Positions 23,688 through 36,810 of a stretch of 44,077 nt of DNA are shown here, piece after piece. Within the stretch, counting starts at the first letter, position 1; every line of letters starts with the position of its first letter. A model generated the notes under the pieces. That model ran no database searches. It was not told where the DNA came from and worked only from the letters and a program-made list of their open reading frames with translations. The stretch is from Shigella phage EP23. Both the position numbers and the translations under genes were made by a program. The stretch lies in sequence record JN984867; one strand, given 5' to 3'.

Positions 23688-24261
23688 AGTTTGAGTTTTC
23701 CCAGTCCATTTTGCGCCGCACCAGCGGGCTTTCGTAATATTCCTTCCCCTCCACTTCCAACAAGGGCCAATCGTTCACAATCACGTAGGGTTCCGCAATG
23801 TCCTCAATTACGCCGTGCGCGCTGTGCTGCCCGAATGACACACCAACCAGGATAACACCGGCAACTCGACGTGTGAGGTACTCGTGCGCGCAACGTGCCT
23901 CAACCAGTCCGCGACGGATGCCGCTGGTGGCTTTCACCTCGTAGGTCCAAACGGCATCGATCATGTGCTCACGGTAGTCGGGGCCGGATTTAACCTTGCG
24001 CTTACCGACCATAATAATATCGCCGCGGTCGATGGTGTTGGCGCTAAACAGGCCAGTACGCATTAGCAAGCCTTGCGGTATGCAACTACGCCCGCCTGCC
24101 TGCCCCTCAAGGTACATGCCCGCAAACATCTCGCCAAGCACACCGACGAGACGGCTTTGTTTGCACGCGTCTGACTTTAAACGCCATTGATCAAACTCGA
24201 TGCTTGCTAACATTGCCGCCAGGTGGAATTGTTTACCGGTTATTTCAAATTCTCCGAACAT
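23686..24261 (-). CDS. hypothetical protein
   Basis: 191 aa ORF, GGGGGA RBS before ATG 24261; last gene of leftward early operon. Confidence 0.45.
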   Translation of the reverse strand: MFGEFEITGKQFHLAAMLASIEFDQWRLKSDACKQSRLVGVLGEMFAGMYLEGQAGGRSCIPQGLLMRTGLFSANTIDRGDIIMVGKRKVKSGPDYREHMIDAVWTYEVKATSGIRRGLVEARCAHEYLTRRVAGVILVGVSFGQHSAHGVIEDIAEPYVIVNDWPLLEVEGKEYYESPLVRRKMDWENSN

Positions 24262-24303
24262 TGTGAATCCCCCATTGCTGCGGGCCGAAGCCCGCGATTA
24301 GTG

Positions 24304-24858
24304 TTATTTCAGTGCGCTACGCACCAGTGTTTTTTCCATGTTGCGGAAGTCTTCCGGCGTCATGCAGATTTTCGGTCCGTCTTCGCCGGTGAGCACGACC
24401 ATAGGCTGGGCGTCCTGATCTGCGATGCCAAAATCGCCGGCCTTAACAGTCTTGCCGAACGAGGCTACCGTGTCCTCCGCAACGCGAATTGCGCTGTTAT
24501 ACGCATTAATCTCACCGTCCAGGCGCACGGACAGGCCTTTGAGGCTTTCAAACTGTTCTGCCGTTGTATCGATCTGAATCTCGTCATGCACGGTCATGTA
24601 AGACTCGCCCAGCAGGGAGGCATACGCCACCAGATCCACGATGTTATCTTCCTGGTGCTTACGGTGCTGGCGCACCAGCTTCAGGCAGATTAGGAAGGTC
24701 CAGGCTTCTTGCTCTGTCAAGTCGCGACCGGTAAGCGCGTTAAACACGGCAGCGATTTGTTTAGCGCTGCGTTCTTCTTTCGCGTTGTCATAGCCGTTTT
24801 CTTTCCCGCGCTGTTCCATAGTGGTGGCGGCGTTTTTGCAGTATTCGTATGCTTTCAC
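24304..24858 (-). CDS. hypothetical protein
   Basis: 184 aa ORF, apparent GTG start at 24858; downstream of promoter with palindromic operator. Confidence 0.45.
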   Translation of the reverse strand: MKAYEYCKNAATTMEQRGKENGYDNAKEERSAKQIAAVFNALTGRDLTEQEAWTFLICLKLVRQHRKHQEDNIVDLVAYASLLGESYMTVHDEIQIDTTAEQFESLKGLSVRLDGEINAYNSAIRVAEDTVASFGKTVKAGDFGIADQDAQPMVVLTGEDGPKICMTPEDFRNMEKTLVRSALK

Positions 24859-24904
24859 AGTATTACCCTTTTAGCGAGGGGGCTGTATTGCCCCCGACAC
24901 GTTT

Positions 24905-24947
24905 ACTATAGTGCAACCAACCTATTGGTTGCAAGTGAATTTTGCAA
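24905..24947 (-). promoter_or_regulatory. leftward promoter TTGCAA-N18-TATAGT overlapping perfect inverted repeat TGCAACCAA-ccta-TTGGTTGCA (24912-24933)
   Basis: Hexamers and palindrome read directly on minus strand. Confidence 0.55.
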
Positions 24948-25392
24948 CGTTTATTGCGTAAATTTTCGGGACCAAATCACCACACGCCCGACGAATTGCC
25001 GCGATGTTCTTCGGGCAGTCCTCAATGATGACCAGTTCCGACACGTCCGCATAGCAGACCATTTTGAACACGGCGCACGCCTTAAACTCAGGCGGCGGGG
25101 TGTCGTCCAGCATGTGGCGCATAAACAACCGGCCTACTGGGAAGACCTCCAATTGCTCGGCGGTGGTGTCCCAACATTCTCGCTGCCGGTTTGTCAGATA
25201 CGCGATCTCGAAGCCTTGCTCTTTATACATGCGCAGCAGCGGCAGCATATCCATGTTCAGGTCTTCGCGGACGTGCGCTTTGTGCCACTTCGCCCAAAAG
25301 GTGGATTTCGTTTTTATCCCCGGCACCAGGTCGGCGCGCGCATCGCTTGATCCATTAATAACGCCATCCAGATCACAAATCAGTAATTTCAT
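24922..25392 (-). CDS. HAD-superfamily phosphatase (putative nucleotidase / 3'-phosphatase)
   Basis: N-terminal LLICDLDGVI matches HAD motif I (DxDG); 156 aa; GAGGA RBS. Confidence 0.55.
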   Translation of the reverse strand: MKLLICDLDGVINGSSDARADLVPGIKTKSTFWAKWHKAHVREDLNMDMLPLLRMYKEQGFEIAYLTNRQRECWDTTAEQLEVFPVGRLFMRHMLDDTPPPEFKACAVFKMVCYADVSELVIIEDCPKNIAAIRRACGDLVPKIYAINVAKFTCNQ

Positions 25393-25613
25393 TTCAATTC
25401 CTCAATCAAATTTGCACGAACAGTACGGGCGGAAAACGTGTCACACACAAGATGACAGCGGGCAGTCATTACAAGCCAGCCAGTAAGGTCCATGCCCAGG
25501 AGGTGTTCTGGCCGTGACACGCGACGCACTTTGTTCTCCCTCGGGTTGATTTGGTAGCGTTTAACAATTTCGTCCACGACGCGCATACTGCGATCAACGA
25601 TTAAGATATTCAC
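25389..25613 (-). CDS. hypothetical small protein
   Basis: 74 aa ORF overlapping neighbours by a few nt; apparent GTG start. Confidence 0.3.
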   Translation of the reverse strand: MNILIVDRSMRVVDEIVKRYQINPRENKVRRVSRPEHLLGMDLTGWLVMTARCHLVCDTFSARTVRANLIEELK

Positions 25614-26079
25614 GTAGTTCTCCCTCGCTCATTATTTCAATTTGTGCGCTGCCGGTGGGCGGCGCTTCGTCGAAGATTATCAATTGCTGGCACTTGTTAT
25701 TGCTCGGCCCGACTTCACCAGTTACAGCGTGAATAAATCGGATACGCCAGTCCAGAAGAATTATCAGGTTTGCAGTCTTCCGGGCCAGCTTCGCCCACTT
25801 AGTCGACGTGTCCTGATTCAGTAGCATGACGGTCCGGCGTCCGTGCGCTGCGCACTTGACCCACGGCAGCGGATCGGAATACGGCGGGTTGCACCACTTC
25901 CACCCTTTCAACTCTGACCAGTCCACCTCAAGCGCGCTGTGCTCTGCCGTGAAGTAACGCGGTAGAAGGTGGTTGGCATCGCTCGCCGCCATATCGTAAC
26001 GGAATCGGTACTTCCGGCGCAGCGGTTTAAATAAAGCTGGCGGCGTGCGCCAGCTATCTTTTTGCTCACTCTTCTGCAT
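25594..26079 (-). CDS. DNA N6-adenine methyltransferase (phage Dam-like, orphan)
   Basis: WRTPPALFKPL...DMAASDANHLLPRYFT...WCNPPYSD: NPPY catalytic motif and Dam-type N-terminus; 161 aa. Confidence 0.7.
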   Translation of the reverse strand: MQKSEQKDSWRTPPALFKPLRRKYRFRYDMAASDANHLLPRYFTAEHSALEVDWSELKGWKWCNPPYSDPLPWVKCAAHGRRTVMLLNQDTSTKWAKLARKTANLIILLDWRIRFIHAVTGEVGPSNNKCQQLIIFDEAPPTGSAQIEIMSEGELREYLNR

Positions 26080-26524
26080 GATCTGGATCTATCGCGTACA
26101 GGGCAATTTTCTTATTACTGTTTAGAACGCGTTGCACGCGCTTTGATTCCTCGGTGCCGAGTGGTCGGCAGTCGGAGTAGTAAGACCCGTTCCCCCGCCA
26201 CGCAACCAGCACCAGGTCTTTCCGGTCAATCTTAGACTGGCGGCCCTTCGGACGCACGTACTCCTCGGCCCGTTTGCAATGCTCACGCAGACCATCGGCA
26301 GTGATGCGGTTTAGTGCAACGCTGGTGGTGTATCCGGTGCGCTGCATAATCCCCATCAATTTGAAAAGCAGTTCGAAGCGCTCCTCTAGCTCCTGGCGCA
26401 CTTTCTTCTCTCCTTCATATAGCGCCTGGTTGGTGTCCACCAACGCGTTAGCCCGTTCGGCCTGTTCGCGGGCTTCGAGGCATTGCGCGGCCCAGTAATC
26501 TTTTTCTTCTTGTAAAATTCTCAT
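26066..26524 (-). CDS. hypothetical protein
   Basis: ATG 26524 (MRILQEEK) after GGAGA RBS; track ORF extends upstream to 26599. Confidence 0.45.
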   Translation of the reverse strand: MRILQEEKDYWAAQCLEAREQAERANALVDTNQALYEGEKKVRQELEERFELLFKLMGIMQRTGYTTSVALNRITADGLREHCKRAEEYVRPKGRQSKIDRKDLVLVAWRGNGSYYSDCRPLGTEESKRVQRVLNSNKKIALYAIDPDHAEE

Positions 26525-26565
26525 CGTGTTGTCTCCAGGTATTAAAAAGGGCGTCCAACCGGACA

Positions 26566-26610
26566 CCCTCAATATAATGCAACCAATATGCTTATGCAAC
26601 CAATTTACGC
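26566..26610 (-). promoter_or_regulatory. leftward promoter region with two TTGGTTGCA motifs (TTGCAT-N17-TATATT)
   Basis: Read on minus strand: ttggttgcataagcatattggttgcattatatt. Confidence 0.5.
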
Positions 26611-26922
26611 ATAAAAATTTGGGTCGCGCGCAACGTCTACCAAGTAAAGGTTACTAATGCGGTTGCCGTAGTGGCCAGGTGTGCGCTGACGGCACACTAC
26701 GGCATAGCCTGGAGGTATTGTATTGCCAGTCTCGATAATCCACGCCACGCGTGCGCCAGACAGCGTCTTGCCGTTGCACTCGATACGAGTACCGCCATCA
26801 GTAGTATTGAGGTTGCCAATCTTGCAGCCGGTGGATTTCAGACGGATGACTCCGGTTTTGCTGTCGTAGGTGAATAGCTGGTTAGTCATTGCGACCGAAA
26901 AATCGATTGGTTCGAATGTCAT
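26605..26922 (-). CDS. HNH-endonuclease-like protein with apparently substituted catalytic residues
   Basis: LFTYDSKTGVIRLK...GKTLSGARVAW...GNRISNLYLV follows the phage HNH_3-type pattern, but the expected His/Asp positions read A and C-R. Confidence 0.45.
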   Translation of the reverse strand: MTFEPIDFSVAMTNQLFTYDSKTGVIRLKSTGCKIGNLNTTDGGTRIECNGKTLSGARVAWIIETGNTIPPGYAVVCRQRTPGHYGNRISNLYLVDVARDPNFYA

Positions 26923-26923
26923 T

Positions 26924-28351
26924 TTAAATTTTCCTCGTTTTCTTAGCTTTCATGTATTCCATCAAGTCGTCCTGGATATCTCGCCTACTGTCGCGACGCT
27001 CGGCGACCAATTCGTCCAGTGTCCCGCGAGCCTGGATAATGTAGACGAATACTGGTCGAGGGTGTCCGGCTTGCATCTGGCGAACCGGCCCGATACGTTC
27101 AACGATCTGCGAAAAGTGCTCAAAGTTCCAGGTATCGGAGAAGATTGCCAGGTGATGTCCGCCGTCCTGCAAGTTAAGGCCGTGGCCTGCCGATGCCGGG
27201 TGTGCAAACATGATGGGGATCTCGCCCCTGTTCCACGCTTCCATATCCTTATTGCCCTGCTTACCCTTACCCAACGCGACGCCGTGCGGAAATTTCTTCT
27301 TAAGACGTGCCAGATCATGCTTGTACTGATACGCAACGAGCAACGGCGCGCCGTTCAACTCCTCCACGATACTTTCCAGCGCGTCCAGCTTCGCGTCGTG
27401 AATCTTCACCCACTCGTCGGTCCGTTCGCCGTCTTCGTCCACCTTATACACAGCGCCGGATGCAAGCTGAAGGCACTTAATTGTCTTCGCCGCGGCGTTC
27501 GCCGCTTCCACTGTTCCGCTTTCCAGTTCGGCAAATAGCTCGCTTTCAAACTGGTCATAAATCTTGCGGGCTTTCTTCGGCAGGTCCACAACAACCGGCG
27601 TATAGATTGGCTTGTCACACCCGAAGTATTCAGCCGCATCAACGGTTAGCGACACGTCGGACAGTCGTTGTTGTATTTCTTTCTCGGAGTTCTTAAGCGG
27701 GGCGTGCTGCATCGTGAAGCTGCCAGGCTTAACAGGCTTGCTAATAAACCAGCGGTCCGTGAACGCCTTATAGCTACTGCCGAGACGTTCGCCGCCGTCG
27801 ACAAACCACGTCTGACCCCATAGGTCTTTCAGCCCGTTCGGTGCGGGTGTGCCAGTCAGGTTAATCCAGCGCTTGACGTGCTTATGTGCGATCGCTGCCA
27901 GCGCACGGGCGCGCTTACTTCCCTGCTTGCTTCTATAGCCTTTCAGCTTAGTGGATTCATCGGCAACCACGACCGTAAAGGGCCACTCGTCGCCGCAATA
28001 CTCAACAAGCCACTCAACTACATCATAGTTAATACAAACCACGTTAGCGTCGCTCTCAAGCGCAGCGATGCGGTCCTTCTCTGGCCCAGTGCCGTCTACT
28101 ACCAGCAAGGCTGGGAAGCGCCATTTCTCCTGTTCCGGGGGCCATGTACCGGACGCAACGCGCAGCGGGGCCAGCACCAGTACGCGGTCATCCTGGTTGG
28201 ACAGGATGCCAGTCTGGAACATTTTATTCAGCGCCCACATGGTCGCGCCGGTTTTACCCGACCCCATTGTCGCCCATATATTGCATCGCTTATGCTTGAG
28301 GATGAACGCGGTTATCAACTTCTGATATTCGCGACGTCGGAAACGTGCCAT
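26924..28351 (-). CDS. SNF2/DEAD-like superfamily-2 helicase
   Basis: Walker A MGSGKTGAT, DExx-like VVADESTK; start taken at ATG 28351 (MARFRRR), track ORF runs to 28441. Confidence 0.7.
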   Translation of the reverse strand: MARFRRREYQKLITAFILKHKRCNIWATMGSGKTGATMWALNKMFQTGILSNQDDRVLVLAPLRVASGTWPPEQEKWRFPALLVVDGTGPEKDRIAALESDANVVCINYDVVEWLVEYCGDEWPFTVVVADESTKLKGYRSKQGSKRARALAAIAHKHVKRWINLTGTPAPNGLKDLWGQTWFVDGGERLGSSYKAFTDRWFISKPVKPGSFTMQHAPLKNSEKEIQQRLSDVSLTVDAAEYFGCDKPIYTPVVVDLPKKARKIYDQFESELFAELESGTVEAANAAAKTIKCLQLASGAVYKVDEDGERTDEWVKIHDAKLDALESIVEELNGAPLLVAYQYKHDLARLKKKFPHGVALGKGKQGNKDMEAWNRGEIPIMFAHPASAGHGLNLQDGGHHLAIFSDTWNFEHFSQIVERIGPVRQMQAGHPRPVFVYIIQARGTLDELVAERRDSRRDIQDDLMEYMKAKKTRKI

Positions 28352-28355
28352 TTCT

Positions 28356-28589
28356 TTATTCCGCCTTTTTCCAGACTTCAGTTTCACTATCCCAGTTCCT
28401 CTTTGTGGCGTCGTAGTTGGTGGCGTGTCCGACGTGGACACCGGTAGCCCGGAAGCTCTTAAATTTTTGCCAGCACACCGTCAACGGCAGTGGGTAATTT
28501 AGGCCCGCGATAAACCACACGCGATCGCCTGGTTTACATTCGCCCAGCTTGGTGAGTCGGTAATGTTCTTTCATCGTCATGTCTCCCAA
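28356..28589 (-). CDS. hypothetical protein
   Basis: 77 aa ORF. Confidence 0.35.
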   Translation of the reverse strand: MGDMTMKEHYRLTKLGECKPGDRVWFIAGLNYPLPLTVCWQKFKSFRATGVHVGHATNYDATKRNWDSETEVWKKAE

Positions 28590-28617
28590 AAATGGCGGGA
28601 CAAGCCCGCCGTATTAA

Positions 28618-28791
28618 TTATTTTTGTTCTGCACGGTAGCGGCGCTGCCGTTCGCGCTCTTTCTTATTGCGGCACGATTTGCACTCTGCCCGATACCCGT
28701 CTGGACTGCGCGCAGTCTTACCGGTGTATTTGTGGAACTGGGATAGCGGCTTTACACAGCCGCAATTACTACAACGTTTTTCTTCAATCAT
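28618..28791 (-). CDS. small zinc-ribbon protein (CxxC...CxxC)
   Basis: MIEEKRCSNCGCVKPLSQF...YRAECKSCRNKKERERQRR; start at internal ATG 28791. Confidence 0.4.
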   Translation of the reverse strand: MIEEKRCSNCGCVKPLSQFHKYTGKTARSPDGYRAECKSCRNKKERERQRRYRAEQK

Positions 28792-28831
28792 CTCTAAAAT
28801 CCTCGATATGGCTAACCGGCACACTATACCG

Positions 28832-29110
28832 CTATGCGACCAATTCAGCAACCAATAAATCGCAGTCGGATATGTTGTCGATAACGCGAACGTCAGCACC
28901 GCGGCGGGCCATTCGCTCATGTTCACGTACCTGGTGCGGCTTCGGTTTTCCTCCGGGGCGCTTCACTTCGACGAACACTATTTTGCCGTTGATGATAATA
29001 ATCAGGTCGGGCGCACCTGCGCGCCCCTCCCATGCCAGTTTTCGGCAGAATCCGCCAACATCTTTCACCCGTCTCATCAGGTGGCTTTGAATCTTGCCTT
29101 CTGGTGTCAT
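28832..29110 (-). CDS. VRR-NUC domain nuclease (PD-(D/E)XK)
   Basis: GAPDLIIIINGKIVFVEVKRPGGK core; start ATG 29110 overlapping polymerase stop. Confidence 0.55.
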   Translation of the reverse strand: MTPEGKIQSHLMRRVKDVGGFCRKLAWEGRAGAPDLIIIINGKIVFVEVKRPGGKPKPHQVREHERMARRGADVRVIDNISDCDLLVAELVA

Positions 29111-32100
29111 TACTTGCGGTAGCGATACATGCAATCGCCCTCTGCGGCAAGTGGGAAGCCTTTCGCCCAAACCGGCAGGTCGCACATCAGCGCGCACAAC
29201 TCCTCGGTTGTGTAGTCGTCGGTATCCGGCACTTCGGTTATCAGCTCATCGTGTACGGAAAGTACGATCTCATACCCCGCAGCTTCAACGCCAGGCATGG
29301 ACCATGCGAGAATATCGCGGCACAACGCCTGTACGATGTTTTCCGTCAGTTTGCCGCCGTAGGTATACTGGAATCCCCACTGGCGCGTCGTCTGATTCTC
29401 GCCCTGATATTTAATGCGTGTGCTGGTGCGCTTCTTGCCGGTGTCTTCGTCGATCTCGGTCGTGACAGACAGCGCGATGCCAGGGTAGCTCATGATGCGC
29501 CCTGACGGCAACTCAATTTTAAGCCACCACCCCGCCGCGTTCGGGTCGTCGCGCTCCTCGTCGAAGGTCGGGTCATGCTTCGCCTTCGTTCGAACAATTT
29601 TGAGCGCTTTCCTGCCATCCGGGCGAACGTTCGCGCCAGCCCAGTACGCTTTGCCCGGATTGCGGATCGCGCAGAGCACCGCGTCCTCCAGTTCGGCCCA
29701 AAAGGCTACCGTCATCGGGTGAGACTCACGCCACATACGTTTGATCGCGTCACACGTCAGCCACACGTTTTTCGGCAGTATGTAAGTTGGGCGCTCGTCT
29801 TTCTTGCCAGGCTTCGGCGGGCGCTTCTCCTCGTTAATGCGAGCGTACTCATAACCCCGCTTCGCCGCCGCCCAAATGTGATCCGGGAATGTGCCCTTCA
29901 TGACGTCAGCCATAGTGTAAAGGTCGAGGCCCAGGTTTTTAGCGAACTGCAAGAACGCCGCGACGCCGCCACCATAGCCCAGGCCAAGCTCGCAGTTATG
30001 CGCCACCAGAAAACCAGACTTAGACGCAATAAGGAACCGGTTTCCGTCTTCCACATCAATCAGGTCGTAAACCGGCTCGCAATAGGTTAACTTCCCGTTC
30101 CAGTTCAGCAATGCGGGTAAGGGCTTCATCGTACTTTCTCTGAAGCTCGGGCACGCTGCGCCGGTTACGGCAGTTTTCCGAACGGCTGACAAACCGAAGG
30201 TTTCCAGGCTCATAGTCGCCGTCTGTATCGATCCTGTCCATTTCGAAGTCTGGCTTATCCCAGCCGTCCAGCGTTTGAACGTAGAGAAGAAACGACCTTT
30301 TATCTCTCTTCCATTCGTCACATACGGCAATCCCACGACCGCCGTAGTTTTTATACCCTTTGGCGCGGGGGTTTGTCGTTCGTGATATTGCCGCTGACAG
30401 CCGGTTGAGTAGCCGCGTTCTGTGCGCATCGTCTGGCATTGCGTCATCGTAGCAAAAATACTGTTTACGATACCGCTTTGTCGCTTCAATTGCGCAGAGG
30501 TTGCATTGGGATGTTTTACCCCTTCGGACGTTGTCATACCCGACGCGTCCTGGCATCGCTCCGCAATCACATTGGGCCAGCAGTTGTCTGTGACCCTGTC
30601 GTTTTGGTAATTCGCGCAGGATAACCAGGCGTCCATACCTCTCGCCAGGGCGCGGACCATCGTGCACCTGTCTGAAACGAGTTGCCTTGCCTCCTTCCAT
30701 GAATGCGTCAAGATTTTGTGGTCTTCTGTCATCAAGACCCCGTCCACGTCTATCACTGGTTTCCACCCCATAAGGTGCGCGCCTTTTGTACTCACCCATT
30801 TTTCGCCGTTCCATACTTTATCCGTTGATGTTACGGCCATAATATCCTTGAACCCGCCATTGGTCAATACTTGGGTATGGCGGTGCAAGCAAGCCTTACC
30901 GATCTGGCGTAAGTCCTTGCGGTTGGCTTTAATGTAATCCGGGTCAAGGCCGAACATCTTACCGGCAGTCTCGCAATAGATATCGCGACCGGCCTTAAAG
31001 ACCATTAACGCTGTTTTCTCGCCAGCGATCCAGGCAAGTCCACGCCCTTCCACATTGGAGTAGTCCGCTACGACAAACTTCTTGCCCTTCGCCGGAATAA
31101 TGCACCCGCGAACGGTCGAGGCCGTTAGCTTCGATATGTCATACGCCCAGTGTGCGGTCCCGCGTAACAGGGAGTTGATGCCGTTGGTGAGCATGTGCGA
31201 CCGGACCCAAAACGAGACGTCGCTTTCACCCTCGCGGCGTTTAATCTTCCCTTCGTGGTCGTCGCTGTACTCGCCACGCGCCAGGTTTTGAGGCTGGAAG
31301 CCTTTGCCCGCCCAGCGCAGCGTGCGCTTTGCGCCGCCATACTGAAGACACCCACGGCGGCGACCATCTGCGGATAAGCCGTTAACTAGCGGATTGTACT
31401 TAGTCGATGCCGTTGATGACGCCCCGAGGCGCATTTCGATAAGCGCTTTGCCTTCGTCGGGGAAGTCCGGGTCTTCAAGCAGGTCGTTAAGCGTGGATTT
31501 CTGCGCGTTGTGGATCGTGAACGCCGGGGCGATATCACGCAGGATTGGCAGGAAGTCATTGCCTGTCAGCTTACCGCCAAATCGCTCCCAGGCTTCTTCC
31601 TTCAATTCTTCCTTATGCGCCTGCACCGCTTTGATCGCGGCGTTCGCCAGGTCAACGTCGACGTAGAAGCCGCGGTCGTTAATCAACTGGTCGATGAGCA
31701 GGATTTCATCTTCCTTAGGCGAGTTTCCCCAGTCCGGTATGCGCCAGTAGACTTCACGCATTGCGATAATATCCAGCGCGGCATAGCGCAGAAATTTGGC
31801 CCATTCTTCCGGGTGAGTCTCGCGAGTGTAGCGGCGGATTTTGTAGGTCTTAGGGGTAGGCTTACAGAATCGGTTAATCAGCGCCTTGCCTGCCTTATCC
31901 TTCGCGTGCTCTGCGTCAACGCCCAGAACCTGGCACTGCATATCGAGGCTACCGGGCAGCGCGTGGCGAAAGGCCATAATCATAGTGTCTTCGATCTGGC
32001 TTACCGGCAGGTCAATACCCCACTTCTCGCGGATAACCAGGCGGTCAAACAGGAGGCCGTTAGCCATCACTATTTTAGCCTTCTTGCGGGATACCCGGCG

Positions 32101-32298
32101 GAGCGCCTTGCGCAGTTCACGCGGCATTGTGGGGGATTCAGTGGCATCCCATGTCTGCACGCGGCCCTCGTCTATGGCGTAGGTGCAAATCATAATCTCT
32201 GTGGTTGGGTGCTCCGCGTAGGCGTACGCCCCAACTTTCTTCAGGTCCACCCCGCTAAATGTCTCGGTGTCGAGAAACAGGCGTTCGAAGTCTTTCAT
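29110..32298 (-). CDS. family A DNA polymerase with 3'-5' exonuclease domain, interrupted by an intein in motif B
   Basis: Exo motif FLDTETFSG, motif A ADYSNVEGR, motif C LSVHDEL; motif B split as RQIGKA / intein / CELGLGYGG. Confidence 0.9.
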   Translation of the reverse strand: MKDFERLFLDTETFSGVDLKKVGAYAYAEHPTTEIMICTYAIDEGRVQTWDATESPTMPRELRKALRRVSRKKAKIVMANGLLFDRLVIREKWGIDLPVSQIEDTMIMAFRHALPGSLDMQCQVLGVDAEHAKDKAGKALINRFCKPTPKTYKIRRYTRETHPEEWAKFLRYAALDIIAMREVYWRIPDWGNSPKEDEILLIDQLINDRGFYVDVDLANAAIKAVQAHKEELKEEAWERFGGKLTGNDFLPILRDIAPAFTIHNAQKSTLNDLLEDPDFPDEGKALIEMRLGASSTASTKYNPLVNGLSADGRRRGCLQYGGAKRTLRWAGKGFQPQNLARGEYSDDHEGKIKRREGESDVSFWVRSHMLTNGINSLLRGTAHWAYDISKLTASTVRGCIIPAKGKKFVVADYSNVEGRGLAWIAGEKTALMVFKAGRDIYCETAGKMFGLDPDYIKANRKDLRQIGKACLHRHTQVLTNGGFKDIMAVTSTDKVWNGEKWVSTKGAHLMGWKPVIDVDGVLMTEDHKILTHSWKEARQLVSDRCTMVRALARGMDAWLSCANYQNDRVTDNCWPNVIAERCQDASGMTTSEGVKHPNATSAQLKRQSGIVNSIFATMTQCQTMRTERGYSTGCQRQYHERQTPAPKGIKTTAVVGLPYVTNGREIKGRFFSTFKRWTAGISQTSKWTGSIQTATMSLETFGLSAVRKTAVTGAACPSFRESTMKPLPALLNWNGKLTYCEPVYDLIDVEDGNRFLIASKSGFLVAHNCELGLGYGGGVAAFLQFAKNLGLDLYTMADVMKGTFPDHIWAAAKRGYEYARINEEKRPPKPGKKDERPTYILPKNVWLTCDAIKRMWRESHPMTVAFWAELEDAVLCAIRNPGKAYWAGANVRPDGRKALKIVRTKAKHDPTFDEERDDPNAAGWWLKIELPSGRIMSYPGIALSVTTEIDEDTGKKRTSTRIKYQGENQTTRQWGFQYTYGGKLTENIVQALCRDILAWSMPGVEAAGYEIVLSVHDELITEVPDTDDYTTEELCALMCDLPVWAKGFPLAAEGDCMYRYRK
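29995..30891 (-). mobile_element. intein (299 aa) in DNA polymerase motif B
   Basis: Insert starts with Cys (codon 30889-30891), ends ...LVAHN followed by Cys (+1); Hint-like blocks CLHRHTQVLTNGG, TEDHKIL, VYDLIDVEDGNRFLIASKSGFLVAHN; excision restores R-x3-K-x3-LG-x2-YG. Confidence 0.8.
30056..30814 (-). CDS. HNH homing endonuclease encoded in an alternative frame inside the intein
   Basis: YGRLVIL...CDCG...RGKTSQCNLC and GYKNYGGRGIAVCDEW...DRIDTDGDYEPGNLRFVSRSENCRNR match phage HNH/His-Me finger proteins; frame differs from polymerase (30814 mod 3 = 1 vs 32298 mod 3 = 0); true start may be an internal Met (~30700). Confidence 0.7.
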   Translation of the reverse strand: MERRKMGEYKRRAPYGVETSDRRGRGLDDRRPQNLDAFMEGGKATRFRQVHDGPRPGERYGRLVILRELPKRQGHRQLLAQCDCGAMPGRVGYDNVRRGKTSQCNLCAIEATKRYRKQYFCYDDAMPDDAHRTRLLNRLSAAISRTTNPRAKGYKNYGGRGIAVCDEWKRDKRSFLLYVQTLDGWDKPDFEMDRIDTDGDYEPGNLRFVSRSENCRNRRSVPELQRKYDEALTRIAELEREVNLLRAGLRPD

Positions 32299-32465
32299 TG
32301 CTTTATCCTCACTACGGCGTCAGCGCTGCCGATCATGGAGAAGATGCCGTCGGACAGGGCGATCTCTTCGCCGTTGTTGCGAATCTCGGCAACTGTGAAA
32401 TATTCCCCCAGTAGCTTGGACCATACTTGCATTCCGACTTTTACTTCGCTGGCTTTAATACGCAT
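32295..32465 (-). CDS. small protein (56 aa) translationally coupled to DNA polymerase
   Basis: ATG 32465 after AGGA; stop TGA overlaps polymerase ATG (ATGA); translated by hand, not in ORF track (below size cut-off). Confidence 0.35.
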   Translation of the reverse strand: MRIKASEVKVGMQVWSKLLGEYFTVAEIRNNGEEIALSDGIFSMIGSADAVVRIKQ

Positions 32466-32523
32466 TTTTCATTGTCCTGTTAAAAAGCCCGCATTAAGCG
32501 GGCTTGAATAGTGGGCTTTGCCC

Positions 32524-33198
32524 TTAACGGCGGCGACGTTTACGTGGCGCTTCGTCTTCGTCGTCGTCTTCGTCATCGTCATCACGACGTTTTGACTTTT
32601 TGGACTTACGCGGGCTTTCATCTTCGTCATCGTCGCCCAGGTCTTCGTCGGAACATGAAGACCCGCCACCGCCGAAGGCTTCGCCGTCATCACGGAAGCG
32701 CATACCCAGCAGACCACAGCCTAAGCCTTTGCCGTTGGTATTGTTCCAGGCCCAAATATCTAAGGAAACGTTGCAATAGCAACCGGAATAGATTTCCTTC
32801 CCTTCGATTTCGTCGCCGTCGATGGTCAGACCCTGCTCCGTCTGCTTCTCGCCTTCGGAAGTCTGGATGATCGGCTGTTTGAACGATTTGGCGTTGATGT
32901 ACAACATGCCTTCGAATTCTTCGGTTACTTCGTCGCGCTCGTCACCGTCGCGAACTGCGCATTCCTTAGAATCCTGGGCGTAGTGGCGGTCCATCCACTT
33001 ATCAGCATTCTTCTCGGATTTCAGCTTGTCGGTTAGCACTGCGCGCGCTGCCGCTTCCACTTTGTCCACCTGCGGATCTTCTTTATCAAGAAGAATCACT
33101 GCACGGTATGCCGGTTTTTGTCCATCCTGTTTAGGGGTATCACGTTCCCAAATTTTAAGGAAACATACGCGCACATTTTTCAGGTTGACTTTAGCCAT
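32524..33198 (-). CDS. ssDNA-binding-like protein (DUF2815-like, putative) with poly-acidic/basic C-terminal tail
   Basis: ATG 33198 after GAGGA; C-terminus DEDLGDDDEDESPRKSKKSKRRDDDDEDDDEDEAPRKRRRR; adjacent to Cas4-like nuclease and polymerase. Confidence 0.45.
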   Translation of the reverse strand: MAKVNLKNVRVCFLKIWERDTPKQDGQKPAYRAVILLDKEDPQVDKVEAAARAVLTDKLKSEKNADKWMDRHYAQDSKECAVRDGDERDEVTEEFEGMLYINAKSFKQPIIQTSEGEKQTEQGLTIDGDEIEGKEIYSGCYCNVSLDIWAWNNTNGKGLGCGLLGMRFRDDGEAFGGGGSSCSDEDLGDDDEDESPRKSKKSKRRDDDDEDDDEDEAPRKRRRR

Positions 33199-33254
33199 TT
33201 TCCAATTCCTCATTTTCACATGTATCGGGGTTATTGGAAGCCACCCCGTTCGGC

Positions 33255-33285
33255 TTGGTTGCTAATTTACTTGGTTGCGCCTGAG
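33255..33285 (-). promoter_or_regulatory. pair of TTGGTTGC motifs 18 bp apart upstream of SSB-like gene
   Basis: cttggttgctaatttacttggttgcg read directly. Confidence 0.35.
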
Positions 33286-33288
33286 CGG

Positions 33289-33531
33289 TCAAGCATTTTC
33301 ATTAAAAAGATTTCGGGTAACGTAGTTGGTCGCGTTCTCGATCCAGCTTAACGGCGGGCGGTTGATGTTCTTCTCCACCCAATCGACGGCAGCTTCGCTA
33401 TAGCCGTCATCCAGCCAGCGGGTCGGATGTCTAATCATCCATGCCACCATTAACACGCCTTGCACACAATGCAGGATAAAGCCCAGCGCGCCGATAACAA
33501 ACATCAATAAGATTGCGAATACTTTATTCAT
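33289..33531 (-). CDS. small membrane protein
   Basis: 80 aa, hydrophobic segment AILLMFVIGALGFILHCVQGVLMVAWMI. Confidence 0.4.
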   Translation of the reverse strand: MNKVFAILLMFVIGALGFILHCVQGVLMVAWMIRHPTRWLDDGYSEAAVDWVEKNINRPPLSWIENATNYVTRNLFNENA

Positions 33532-35396: not shown

Positions 35397-35424
35397 TAAA
35401 AAGAGGCCCGCTAATATGCGGGCC
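35397..35424 (-). terminator. intra-operon terminator / attenuator
   Basis: On minus strand GGCCCGC-atatta-GCGGGCC hairpin followed by CUUUUU. Confidence 0.45.
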
Positions 35425-35426
35425 GG

Positions 35427-35552
35427 ATAATATTAATCTTCACCGCCGAGTTGTTTATAAACCTCGTCCGGGTCGTCGCCTCTTTCTTCGCAGAAGGCGG
35501 TGAATGCCGCCCAATTTTCTGCTATGAAATCGAGCATGATTCTCATTTCATA
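35427..35552 (-). CDS. small acidic protein (41 aa)
   Basis: ATG 35552; hand-translated MDYEMRIMLDFIAENWAAFTAFCEERGDDPDEVYKQLGGED. Confidence 0.25.
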
Positions 35553-35562
35553 GTCCATGATA

Positions 35563-36081
35563 TTAATCTTCCAGTTCGAAATAAGTTTCGACGATTTCTT
35601 TTAGCTCTTTGTGGAAGTCTTCGACGTCGTCATCTTCCAGCTTAGCGATTGATTTGATCTCGAACGATTCCAGAAGGTCGTCGAATTCGTCGTTCGCATC
35701 GTCGTCATCGCCACCGGCGATAATCGCGGCATACTGTTTGATTTCGTCGCGCATCTCCGCCAGCGGATCGGCATCTTTCTTACCTTTGCCTTTCGCCGGT
35801 GCTTTCTTAGACTTAGCCGGTTTTTCGTCTTCGGCATCGGCATCGTCGTCGTCATCTTCTACGACTTCTTTTTTGGCCTTACCTTTCGCCGGTGCTTTTT
35901 TGGTTTTCGCCGGGGCTTCGTCTTCAGCGTCGTCATCTTCTACGACTTCTTTTTTGGCCTTAGACGGCTTCTTGTCTTCCTGTTTACCAACGGCAGCGCC
36001 AACGGTTTCATAATGCTTAGCGATGATTTCCAGTGCTACTACGCCGCGAGTGATCAGGTTTACGATTTGCTCAAACATGGT
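35563..36081 (-). CDS. highly charged repeat protein (alternating poly-acidic and KKAPAKGK blocks), first gene of leftward early operon
   Basis: Start ATG 36081 (MFEQIVNL); internal ~70-bp tandem DNA repeat near 35780-35960; track ORF extends to 36306 through the leader. Confidence 0.5.
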   Translation of the reverse strand, partial: TMFEQIVNLITRGVVALEIIAKHYETVGAAVGKQEDKKPSKAKKEVVEDDDAEDEAPAKTKKAPAKGKAKKEVVEDDDDDADAEDEKPAKSKKAPAKGKGKKDADPLAEMRDEIKQYAAIIAGGDDDDANDEFDDLLESFEIKSIAKLEDDDVEDFHKELKEIVETYFELED

Positions 36082-36274
36082 ATATCTCCGATTGGTTAAG
36101 TTTAGGTGTCGACCATTAACTTCGTCGGTGGCCTTAACATAGTGCCAGGTTACGCGTTCTCCCGTTCGGGTAGTGGACCTGGTTATATAATCACGGTTGG
36201 GAATCCTGACACTTCGATCCGGCCCCTGCGTTGCCCCTCTCCAGTTTGCGTCCTGCATCCTGTCGACGAGGTGA

Positions 36275-36303
36275 ATATTAGATTGGTTGCAGAAGGGAGT
36301 CAA
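36275..36303 (-). promoter_or_regulatory. leftward promoter TTGACT-N17-TAATAT with TGCAACCAA in the spacer
   Basis: Read on minus strand: TTGACTcccttctgcaaccaatcTAATAT; ~190-nt leader before ATG 36081. Confidence 0.55.
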
Positions 36304-36313
36304 CAACTAATTT

Positions 36314-36350
36314 AAAAAAAAAAAGCGCCGAAGCAAAATGCGACGGCGCT
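36314..36350 (-). terminator. strong rho-independent terminator on minus strand in divergent intergenic region
   Basis: AGCGCCG...CGGCGCT hairpin followed (minus strand) by ~11 U. Confidence 0.65.
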
Positions 36351-36372
36351 AACCAATAAGAGACAATGAGAC
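36314..36372 (-). ncRNA. candidate ~55-nt small RNA (promoter TTGAAA-N16-TAATAA to terminator)
   Basis: Minus-strand promoter-like hexamers at ~36380-36407 immediately upstream of the terminator; no coding potential. Confidence 0.25.
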
Positions 36373-36420
36373 GGGAGTATTATTACACGCGTGCGCGCCC
36401 GTTTCAATATCCCAAAGGAG

Positions 36421-36449
36421 TTGACACCCTGCGGTTTTAGGTGTAGTTT
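36421..36449 (+). promoter_or_regulatory. rightward promoter TTGACA-N17-TAGTTT
   Basis: Consensus -35 read directly upstream of gene at 36481. Confidence 0.55.
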
Positions 36450-36480
36450 CATTGGTCATTAACCAACCGGAGACAGAATA

Positions 36481-36810
36481 ATGAATATCAACGACGCAAT
36501 CGAAATGCTAACGAAGACTGTCTGCAGTGAGACTAGCCGGTCCTGGGCGTATACCGATGCCGTGGGGGCGGTGCTATTTGAAATCGAACGTCTGCGACTT
36601 ACCGAAAAAGAATTGCGCGCGAAGCTGGAATTACTCAACGGTACGGCAGCCAGCAAGCTGCAAAAGCACAATGAAGAAATGGAAGAATACAAAAAACAGG
36701 TTATCCGTTTGCGCGCCGAGGGAAAATCCTGGGCGATGATCGCTGAGTTGACAGGAATTAATCAGAGCACCGTGCGCTCCTGGGTACGCAATAACAAAAC
36801 TTCGAAGTAA
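36481..36810 (+). CDS. HTH DNA-binding protein (putative transcriptional regulator)
   Basis: C-terminal KSWAMIAELTGINQSTVRSWVRN helix-turn-helix; GGAGA RBS; first rightward gene. Confidence 0.5.
   Translation: MNINDAIEMLTKTVCSETSRSWAYTDAVGAVLFEIERLRLTEKELRAKLELLNGTAASKLQKHNEEMEEYKKQVIRLRAEGKSWAMIAELTGINQSTVRSWVRNNKTSK

Follow-up and report, generated by a model that had tools for sequence, protein, structure and literature searches.

A probable new family of structured leader RNA upstream of an early operon in Shigella phage EP23 and other virulent enterobacterial phages

What occupies the long non-coding stretch between the two divergent early gene blocks of Shigella phage EP23? In the 44,077-nucleotide (nt) sequence of this phage (record JN984867; the whole of this stretch is referred to here as the window), a gap of 401 bp at 36080–36480 separates a minus-strand gene that begins at 36079 from a plus-strand gene that begins at 36481. 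EP23 is a Dhillonvirus, a HK578-like virulent siphophage of E. coli, and the 1.5 kb around this control region is 90–95% identical to more than 130 Dhillonvirus genomes. A first-pass annotation of the window had described divergent promoters, an isolated promoter–terminator pair and a main leftward promoter (P-left) followed by a leader of ~190 nt that could hold regulatory RNA structure. Every one of these features is present, and the suggestion about the leader turned out to go further than proposed, the leader belonging to a covariation-supported family that spans phage genera. We are confident that this leader, which runs for ~189 nt on the minus strand from a predicted start near 36268 to 36080 (with the ATG at 36079), represents a genuine and previously uncatalogued structured RNA that forms the 5′ end of the early transcript.

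The evidence for a conserved fold is comparative. The family is described by a covariance model (R1) of 168 positions and 43 pairs, and covariation was evaluated on the model alignment of 30 distinct sequences against controls in which pairing partners were slid by 1–3 columns or columns were shuffled 500 times. In this alignment 88.4% of cells were paired, compared to 30–45% with slid partners, and compensatory double changes were present at 20 pairs, compared to 3–7 in the slid controls; none of the 500 column shuffles reached the observed values of pairing and covariation. Given that the alignment was fitted to the model and that the sequences are related, our case rests mainly on the comparison with slid partners, together with the variety of pair types found in helices P5, P6, P3 and P1. 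Every copy of the family scored 150–194 bits with the model, the best non-member in 1.8 Mb of unrelated sequence scored 16.7 bits, and the EP23 leader matched over 36104–36272 (minus strand) with 153.5 bits (E = 1.6e-39) as the single copy in the window. Folding of the leader on its own, which the first-pass annotation had put forward as a check, did not reveal this structure: the single-sequence fold had a z-score of −0.6, and the minimum-energy fold misses the conserved helices.

The fold comprises at least seven helices over 160 nt (Table 1). The sequence of the closing helix P1 varies by lineage while its pairing is always kept (GUCGAC/GUCGAC, GACGGGC/GCCCGUC, GGGCGGCG/CGCCGCCC and GACGG/CCGUC). 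Across nine aligned lineages, P6 takes the forms CCC-GAAC-GGG, GCC-GAAA-GGC, CCG-GAAA-CGG and CUC-GAAA-GAG; P5 the forms CCAGGU/ACCUGG, CUAUC/GAUAG, CAUUGG/CCAAUG, CGCAC/GUGCG and CAUAAC/GUUAUG; and P4 the forms CUUGAU/GUCAGG, CUUGUU/AACAGG and CUUAAU/GUUAGG. P5 is 94.7% paired with three to five pair types per position, and compensatory switches in this helix also occur within a genus (CCAGG/CCUGG, CCUGG/CCAGG, CCCGG/CCGGG). P3 is 100% paired, and its pair 41–148 is A-U in 19 sequences and G-C in 11. The inner helix P3a provides no evidence either way because it is invariant, and a tentative helix P7 is 70% paired. The P2 loop presents GGA in every lineage, on stems of the form GCA-GGA-UGC or GCAA-GGA-UUGC, and this hairpin bears some resemblance to CsrA-binding sites; CAGGAUG is found at 36256–36262 in the window and in most lineages, CAGGACG is found in the window, and other GGA motifs lie outside hairpin loops, in the junction GGAGAGG and the stem shoulder CAGGAUU. 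One G-U pair is invariant (30 of 30 sequences) and several others are near-invariant or frequent, and we therefore assign the fold to the transcribed strand. P4 has three such pairs, one invariant and two near-invariant, which makes the fold strand-specific. A search for covarying pairs beyond the model, including pseudoknots, was confounded by the split between Dhillonvirus and all other sequences, and a candidate contact between AGUG in the P4 loop and CACU has both sides invariant and so gives no covariation signal.

The position of the element within the transcript is likewise constrained. A sigma70-type −10 box lies 7–11 nt before P1 in all lineages, and 25–37 nt separate the P1 3′ arm from the start codon in 11 lineages despite unrelated downstream genes. 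No intrinsic terminator was detected between the element and the next start codon in the lineages scanned, and in the lineages compared the linkers were unstructured, with no complementarity to conserved parts of the element and no sequestration of the Shine-Dalgarno sequence. Across the lineages compared, neither strand of the element holds a conserved reading frame; the 69-amino-acid (69-aa) open reading frame (ORF) on the opposite strand, which the first-pass annotation had judged probably not coding, is indeed frame-shifted or broken by stops in tunus, BUCT618 and PHB17. A weakly conserved UUAAC/UUUAAC follows P1 at a distance of 8–14 nt in most lineages (36092–36100 in the window). We considered the UUUAAC of the linker as the 3′ half of a boxA and dropped this assignment, since the resemblance is weak and GCUCUU is not present; the motif also recalls an RNase E site, again too faintly for a call. 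An assignment of GGCGGCAG as an RfaH ops element was also dropped, the similarity being absent in Dhillonvirus.

Searches of Rfam 15 gave no match to the element: none at the gathering threshold, none at E ≤ 10 in the window and none at E ≤ 5 in any of six other lineages. ARAGORN detected no tRNA or tmRNA genes in the window. We found no published description of this leader RNA, nor of leader RNAs of Dhillonvirus or T1-like phages, in the literature.

Table 1 Coordinates of the leader RNA and of other features in and near the control region (window positions; promoters, transcripts and fold are predicted from sequence).
Feature	Position	Strand	Details
Conserved structured leader RNA	36108–36267	−	Core, from P1 5′ arm to P1 3′ arm, ~160 nt
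P1 5′ arm, GUCGAC	36262–36267	−	Pairs with 36108–36113
P2 hairpin, UGC-AGGAC-GCA	36247–36257	−	GGA in loop; stem lengthens on both sides together between lineages
Invariant junction GGAGA	36238–36242	−	5′ of P3 arm
P3 5′ arm, GGGGC	36233–36237	−	Pairs with GCC-A-CC at 36127–36132
P3a/P4 arm	36193–36231	−	P3a, ACG 36229–36231 with CGU 36193–36195, encloses P4
P4	36217–36226 with 36199–36210	−	GGGGCCGGAU with GUCAGGAUUCCC; 96.7% paired, 3 compensatory pairs
P5/P6 arm	36145–36182	−	P5, CCAGGU 36177–36182 with ACCUGG 36145–36150; encloses P6 and invariant AACGC
P6, CU-A-CCC-GAAC-GGG-AG	36159–36173	−	100% paired; one position C-G/G-C split 15:15
Junction GACGAAG	36120–36126	−	Between P3 and P1; near-invariant in alignments, EK99P-1 alone reads GACGAGG
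Linker with Shine-Dalgarno sequence	36080–36107	−	28 nt, unstructured, A/C-rich; contains TAACCAAUCGGAGAUA at 36083–36098
P-left, main leftward promoter	36275–36303	−	TTGACT-17-TAATAT, 9/12 matches; predicted start ~36267–36269
P-up, upstream promoter	36379–36407	−	TTGAAA-17-TG-AATAAT, 10/12 matches plus TG; predicted start ~G36372
Predicted ~56-nt small RNA unit	36314–36372	−	~36372 to ~36317; P-up start, terminator end
Small-RNA seed	36350–36372	−	CU-rich 5′ region, unpaired in predicted fold; contains UGUCUCUUAUUGGUUA
Small-RNA terminator	36325–36350 (hairpin), 36314–36324 (U11 tail)	−	AGCGCCG-UC-GCA-UUU-UGC-UU-CGGCGCU; −15.7 kcal/mol, z −2.5
P-right, rightward early promoter	36421–36449	+	TTGACA-17-TAGTTT; predicted; serves the operon of the 109-aa helix-turn-helix gene and helicase-primase
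69-aa ORF	36106–36315	+	Antisense to leader RNA; not a gene
Intrinsic terminator in leftward operon	35405–35424	−	After first two ORFs; GGCCCGC..GCGGGCC then UCUUUUU; −15.2 kcal/mol

The element is not confined to the relatives of EP23. It was found in ~190 of 50,697 phage records, representing at least eight lineages of virulent phages of enteric bacteria, with carriers that comprise coliphages together with phages of Klebsiella, Salmonella, Enterobacter and Serratia. A sensitive BLAST search with the gap matched Dhillonviruses and, over the leader only, unrelated siphophages; the lineages outside Dhillonvirus are Warwickvirus (tunus, swan01), Changchunvirus PHB17, Jilinvirus Arya, Sortsnevirus IME279, KA2-1, the Drexlerviridae phage KMI8 and BUCT618. 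BLAST with the Arya version returned 170 records, including Serratia phage MQ-4, Salmonella phage Lumpael and the BASEL phage Bas97. Sequence similarity ends at the edges of the element, and the copies outside Dhillonvirus always lie in a gap of 230–270 bp between co-oriented genes, with the element in the same orientation. A sequence search recovered no copy from 5,426 complete E. coli genomes and 72,556 plasmids. A metagenome scan added only eight further non-Dhillonvirus copies, all near known types, and no distant relatives; the family as sampled is narrow (150–194 bits, with the next match at 17). Matches from a 17-base-pattern scan of genome contigs were mostly chance occurrences in GC-rich genomes, with contig L202 alone proving real, and those from a 15-mer scan of viral contigs were also mostly chance occurrences, as the model search showed. 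L202 (QFQS01000013.1), a 42.7-kb contig in a metagenome-assembled genome labelled ‘Cereibacter sphaeroides’, carries an IME279-type copy (181.6 bits) and is probably a Sortsnevirus-like phage contig that was mis-binned.

The genes that follow the element have little in common. The first downstream genes span at least eight PHROG families without known function, plus one Kil-like gene, and a search for proteins that co-occur with the element across lineages yielded none, returning only spurious ORFs that overlap the element itself; any effect in cis must therefore be generic. In Warwickviruses the gene directly downstream encodes 60 aa (tunus_48, L004:2793-2975; also in L285) and has homologues in many Klebsiella phages, one of which is annotated as ‘anti-RM protein stp1’.

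Several close relatives do without the element. The Dhillonviruses YD-2008.s and Ioannina keep P-left, the first gene and the linker, and their leader is shrunk to a short hairpin (CGUCG-AAA-CGAC in Ioannina). In the Warwick-like phage vB_Eco-B1.2 the tunus promoter is followed by CAUAGGGCGGC-ACGGCGU-CGCCC, a linker and a Shine-Dalgarno sequence, and both P2–P6 and the stp1-like gene are missing. As relatives in two genera thus lack P2–P6 and retain the promoter and a P1-like 5′ hairpin, the inner domain is accessory. In Sloth, rolling, SP1 and CHD5UKE2, BLAST matches were limited to the promoter-proximal half of the gap, and these phages probably lack the element as well. On the basis of these sequence comparisons, the element is a discrete, horizontally shared module that consists of a promoter, a ~160-nt RNA and an A/C-rich linker abutting the Shine-Dalgarno sequence of the next gene. 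Its sharing across genera, its accessory status and its start essentially at the transcription start had escaped the first-pass annotation.

What might such an RNA do? We tentatively favour a cis-acting leader, in which P1 would protect the 5′ end and the optional inner domain would recruit a conserved host factor to the nascent transcript, because the promoter-to-P1 and P1-to-start-codon spacings are fixed and the element has no terminator of its own. The RNA folds, from the first few bases of the predicted transcript, into the closing helix P1, which encloses the GGA-loop hairpin P2 and a three-way junction at P3 with the irregular arms P3a/P4 and P5/P6. Situated at the extreme 5′ end, P1 would give the early mRNA a baseline protection, and the P2–P6 domain, with its invariant purine-rich junctions (GGAGA, AACGC, GACGAAG and CCCAACCGUGA), would bind a factor conserved among Enterobacteriaceae and thereby act in cis on the nascent transcript. 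The likeliest effect would be that RNA polymerase comes to resist termination or Rho, in a manner like that of the put RNAs of phage HK022 but unrelated to them, and/or that mRNA stability and translation rise; either would boost the downstream early genes for host takeover, anti-defence and recombination. In the Dhillonvirus, Arya, BUCT618, L021 and L027 lineages the element is followed by co-directional intrinsic terminators, and the terminator in the leftward operon of the window is kept in Dhillonviruses, its loop and the top of the stem beside it being variable (GGCCCGCAUAUUAGCGGGCC vs GGCCCGCUAAUCUGCGGGCC).

A number of observations weigh against this cis-acting leader. No strong terminator lies within 2.4–3 kb downstream of the element in tunus, PHB17 and KMI8, and the element-less Dhillonviruses keep an equally strong downstream terminator and the same genes, so that the element is probably not needed for read-through of that terminator and an essential put-like role is argued against. 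Each genome has one copy, which serves only one of two divergent operons. When the early region of HK022 (24000–33500) was searched with model R1 with filters off, the best match reached 8.4 bits (E = 0.39), and thus no homology to put was detected there. Invariant junction sequences are more than a plain 5′ stabiliser would call for, and the accessory, moron-like behaviour of the element would fit a function in trans equally well; in tunus, moreover, the element travels with the small gene whose homologue is annotated as anti-restriction-modification.

The moron-like distribution makes a trans-acting decoy nearly as likely as the cis-acting leader, if doubtful when taken by itself. The domain would be released from the early mRNA, or outlive it, and serve host takeover or counter-defence as an RNA ‘moron’ that occupies a host RNA-binding protein, for example CsrA (by way of the GGA hairpin), RNase E, Hfq or Rho, or a defence component. 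Such a role would suit an accessory, patchily distributed element that has its own promoter, moves among unrelated phages independently of any protein and was found in phage records only; it would also suit the setting, since these early regions are rich in small genes, the neighbours include the Kil-like gene and the gene with the stp1-annotated homologue, and a comparison of tunus with B1.2 shows the element travelling with the stp1-like gene. The invariant GGA in the P2 loop, CAGGAUG, CAGGACG and the further GGA motifs point in the same direction, and the A/U-rich single-stranded linker after P1 could be a site of RNase E cleavage. Against a function in trans, the element is always fused to the downstream ORF at a narrow spacing and has no terminator, release of such a domain has no known precedent, and known CsrA sponges display many GGA motifs in hairpin loops, the present element just one. 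A rather less probable proposal, again drawn from sequence comparison, is that P2–P6 is a mobile binding-RNA cassette of virulent enterobacterial phages which either senses or sequesters a small molecule of the host (an immune or stress nucleotide messenger, for instance) or decoys a host RNA-binding protein. This would make it the first RNA class in well-studied lytic coliphages to serve host takeover or counter-defence as an aptamer or decoy.

The remaining explanations are less probable. The size of the element, its multi-helix junction and its invariant unpaired nucleotides are typical of aptamers, and in Arya-type sequences we read the alignment as showing an extended P1 that competes with the outer P2 stem, as would be expected of a riboswitch-like sensor in which P2–P6 forms the aptamer and a ligand-dependent P1 controls Rho access, 5′-end decay or translation of the early operon. 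We nevertheless consider such a sensor unlikely: the alternative P1/P2 pairing is not kept in PHB17 or Dhillonvirus, the stretch from the element to the start codon holds neither an intrinsic terminator nor conserved anti-Shine-Dalgarno pairing, the genes downstream belong to no common pathway, and no Rfam aptamer matches. Slightly less probable still is a plain 5′ stabiliser or expression cassette, which would shield the 5′ end from RppH and RNase E and keep Rho off the leader with no specific partner. P1 does begin a few nucleotides from the predicted start, the element is compact and GC-rich, and the deletion variants retain a 5′ hairpin in the same place, but these variants also indicate that a small hairpin suffices, and a stabiliser does not require ~70 positions, many of them unpaired, to be invariant across genera. 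A new self-cleaving ribozyme that trims the leader is very improbable; small ribozymes are common in phage intergenic regions and the core of the element is complex and conserved, but no Rfam ribozyme family matched even at E ≤ 10, and no conserved candidate cleavage architecture was identified. We give the least credence to an element that acts as DNA, whether a replication origin, a single-strand initiation site or an array of protein operators. In its favour the element adjoins helicase or primase genes in Dhillonvirus, Arya, KA2-1 and PHB17, but the tunus and BUCT618 copies are not near replication genes, phages without the element replicate normally, every lineage has a promoter at a fixed distance from the element, and on the opposite strand the invariant and near-invariant G-U pairs would turn into A-C mismatches.

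Upstream of P-left, the second component of the control region is a small unit formed by the promoter P-up and a terminator, the promoter, body and terminator of which are conserved among Dhillonviruses. The minus-strand terminator called at 36314–36350 by the first-pass annotation is real, as judged from its folding z-score and from compensatory changes in the stem in Ioannina (UCCCCG/CGGGGA); a simple terminator scan missed it because of its internal loop. A 16-nt motif, TAACCAANNNGAGAYA, occurs exactly three times in the 44 kb (0.03 expected by chance): at 36083–36098 (minus strand) and 36460–36475 (plus strand), which are the ribosome-binding sites of the first genes of both blocks, and at 36350–36365 (plus strand). 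As the third occurrence is on the plus strand within the small-RNA gene, the predicted small RNA carries a complement to both ribosome-binding sites. The predicted pairing of the seed involves 15 of 16 positions at the left site and 14 of 16 at the right, wobbles counted, and covers both Shine-Dalgarno sequences. Among the eight distinct Dhillonvirus intergenic sequences that were aligned, the seed is invariant, and A-to-G variation in its targets keeps A-U or G-U pairs.

From these features a small-RNA transcript is plausible, now with candidate targets: the P-up/terminator pair would make an Hfq-type small RNA of ~56 nt, the seed of which would base-pair across the ribosome-binding site of the first gene in each divergent block and repress both genes. 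The first-pass annotation had proposed a transcript of ~55 nt or, as an alternative, an insulator, and the pair may instead act in that second way. If such an RNA is made, its shutting of both early operons would constitute a simple early-to-late switch in a virulent phage. Such a transcript would share with Hfq-dependent enterobacterial small RNAs a length of ~56 nt, its own sigma70-type promoter, a CU-rich single-stranded seed, an A/U-rich stretch, a Rho-independent terminator with a long U tail and, at the sequence level, complementarity of the seed to Shine-Dalgarno regions; it differs from them in its origin, a virulent phage, and in the location of its gene between the two operons that would be its targets. 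Set against this proposal, the duplex energies of −16.4 and −18.6 kcal/mol are only ~2–2.6 standard deviations below the genome background, and the Dhillonvirus alignment contains no compensatory co-variation of seed and targets. The repeated TAACCAANNNGAGAYA motif could instead be a protein operator, an alternative raised by the enrichment of AACCAA-type motifs near other promoter-like sites, including a palindrome at 24912–24933.

The AACCAAY motif as such is about twofold over-represented in the window (24 sites, compared to 11.4 expected). The palindrome at 24912–24933, TGCAACCAAC-CT-ATTGGTTGCA, is a perfect one of the AACCAA type and overlaps a promoter-like site, and GCAACCAAT sits in the P-left spacer at 36282–36291. 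These sites may represent the operator of a phage regulator such as the 109-aa helix-turn-helix protein.

The three promoters and the small-RNA terminator are all conserved in the eight aligned Dhillonvirus sequences, and the depositors of the HK578 record annotated equivalents of all three promoters. By count alone the promoter scan was near chance (four sites, compared to 1.9 ± 1.5 expected). P-right fails the −10 rule of the scan and was read directly from the sequence; it is kept in the eight Dhillonvirus variants, and P-up is retained even in Dhillonvirus variants that lack the leader element. The −35 boxes of P-left and P-right are extended alike (GTTGACNCCCT) and form an inverted repeat at 36294–36304 and 36420–36430. 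The P-up spacer contains an alternating purine-pyrimidine tract at 36386–36399 (ACACGCGTGCGCGC), which is largely kept in Dhillonviruses, with single-base changes in two of the eight aligned sequences. A 24-aa plus-strand ORF at 36367–36441 was rejected as a gene, being frameshifted in L011.

The two gene blocks that flank the gap differ in content. The leftward block (minus strand, from 36079) encodes a 171-aa acidic protein, small ORFs, a PD-(D/E)XK nuclease and SSB; the rightward block (plus strand, from 36481) encodes the 109-aa helix-turn-helix protein followed by a 754-aa helicase-primase. A second strong terminator hairpin of the leftward operon lies near 32480 (minus strand), ~3.6 kb downstream. 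The gene for the acidic protein (35563–36079, minus strand) contains an 81-bp direct duplication within 35848–35946 that encodes KKEVVEDDD...KKAPAKGK repeats. The record of phage welsh annotates a repeat_region at this duplication, and Tandem Repeats Finder reported nothing in 35500–36500, the duplication included. The very acidic product might be a DNA mimic.

A complex and strongly constrained RNA fold is unannotated in the carrier records examined, including members of the BASEL collection, which is in use in many laboratories. The RNA stands first in an early transcript, and unrelated phages exchange it along with a promoter-like −10 region. Because two genera each hold natural versions with and without the element, a genetic comparison is already available, and in a host that is easy to work with. 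Should the RNA modify RNA polymerase, it would join the single class of protein-independent antiterminator RNA so far known in phages; should it bind a ligand or a protein of the host, a regulatory or counter-defence RNA of a new kind would be the outcome.

Among known systems, the put RNAs of HK022 provide a functional model for the cis-acting leader. HK022 put RNA binds the zinc-binding domain of the RNA polymerase β′ subunit and acts without protein factors. In both systems host RNA polymerase transcribes the RNA from an early promoter of the phage, a long operon with intrinsic terminators follows, and no dedicated protein partner is encoded nearby. Both RNAs fold from the first few nucleotides: base-pairing in putL begins at A3, +3 of its transcript (PMC9378689), and here the fold is predicted to start 7–11 nt after the −10 box. 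The two differ in architecture, put being ~70 nt with two stem-loops, whereas the present element spans ~160 nt and combines a closing helix with a hairpin and a three-way junction. They also differ in setting, as the element is found in virulent siphophages, once per genome, and is dispensable, with deletion variants that keep the downstream terminator. The C4 RNA of P1/P7 and the CI RNA of P4 are likewise structured RNAs from the 5′ part of an early operon transcript without a terminator of their own; however, they serve the immunity of temperate elements and have as targets complementary sites within their own transcript, whereas the phages considered here are virulent, and no target repeats of the C4/CI kind were seen for the leader element.

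The minimal variants in Ioannina, YD-2008.s and B1.2 look exactly like the 5′ stabilising hairpins of the ompA type, and the full element shares with these a helix a few nucleotides from the 5′ end that is followed by a single-stranded region and a Shine-Dalgarno sequence; it differs in adding a 140-nt inner domain with invariant junctions that would be superfluous for a stabiliser. With riboswitch aptamers and orphan Rfam motifs the element shares its size, a multi-helix junction, strong covariation of stems and invariant unpaired bases, and it is set apart from them by having no Rfam 15 match, recognisable expression platform or common downstream pathway. A survey of covarying intergenic motifs in IMG/VR, which drew on the same viral contigs, listed 8,495 unnamed and uncharacterised candidates of up to 151 nt (Fremin et al. 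2023, PMC10690425), and the element, in whole or in part, may be among them. Compared to all of these, it is a promoter-proximal phage leader RNA that stands outside all catalogued families.

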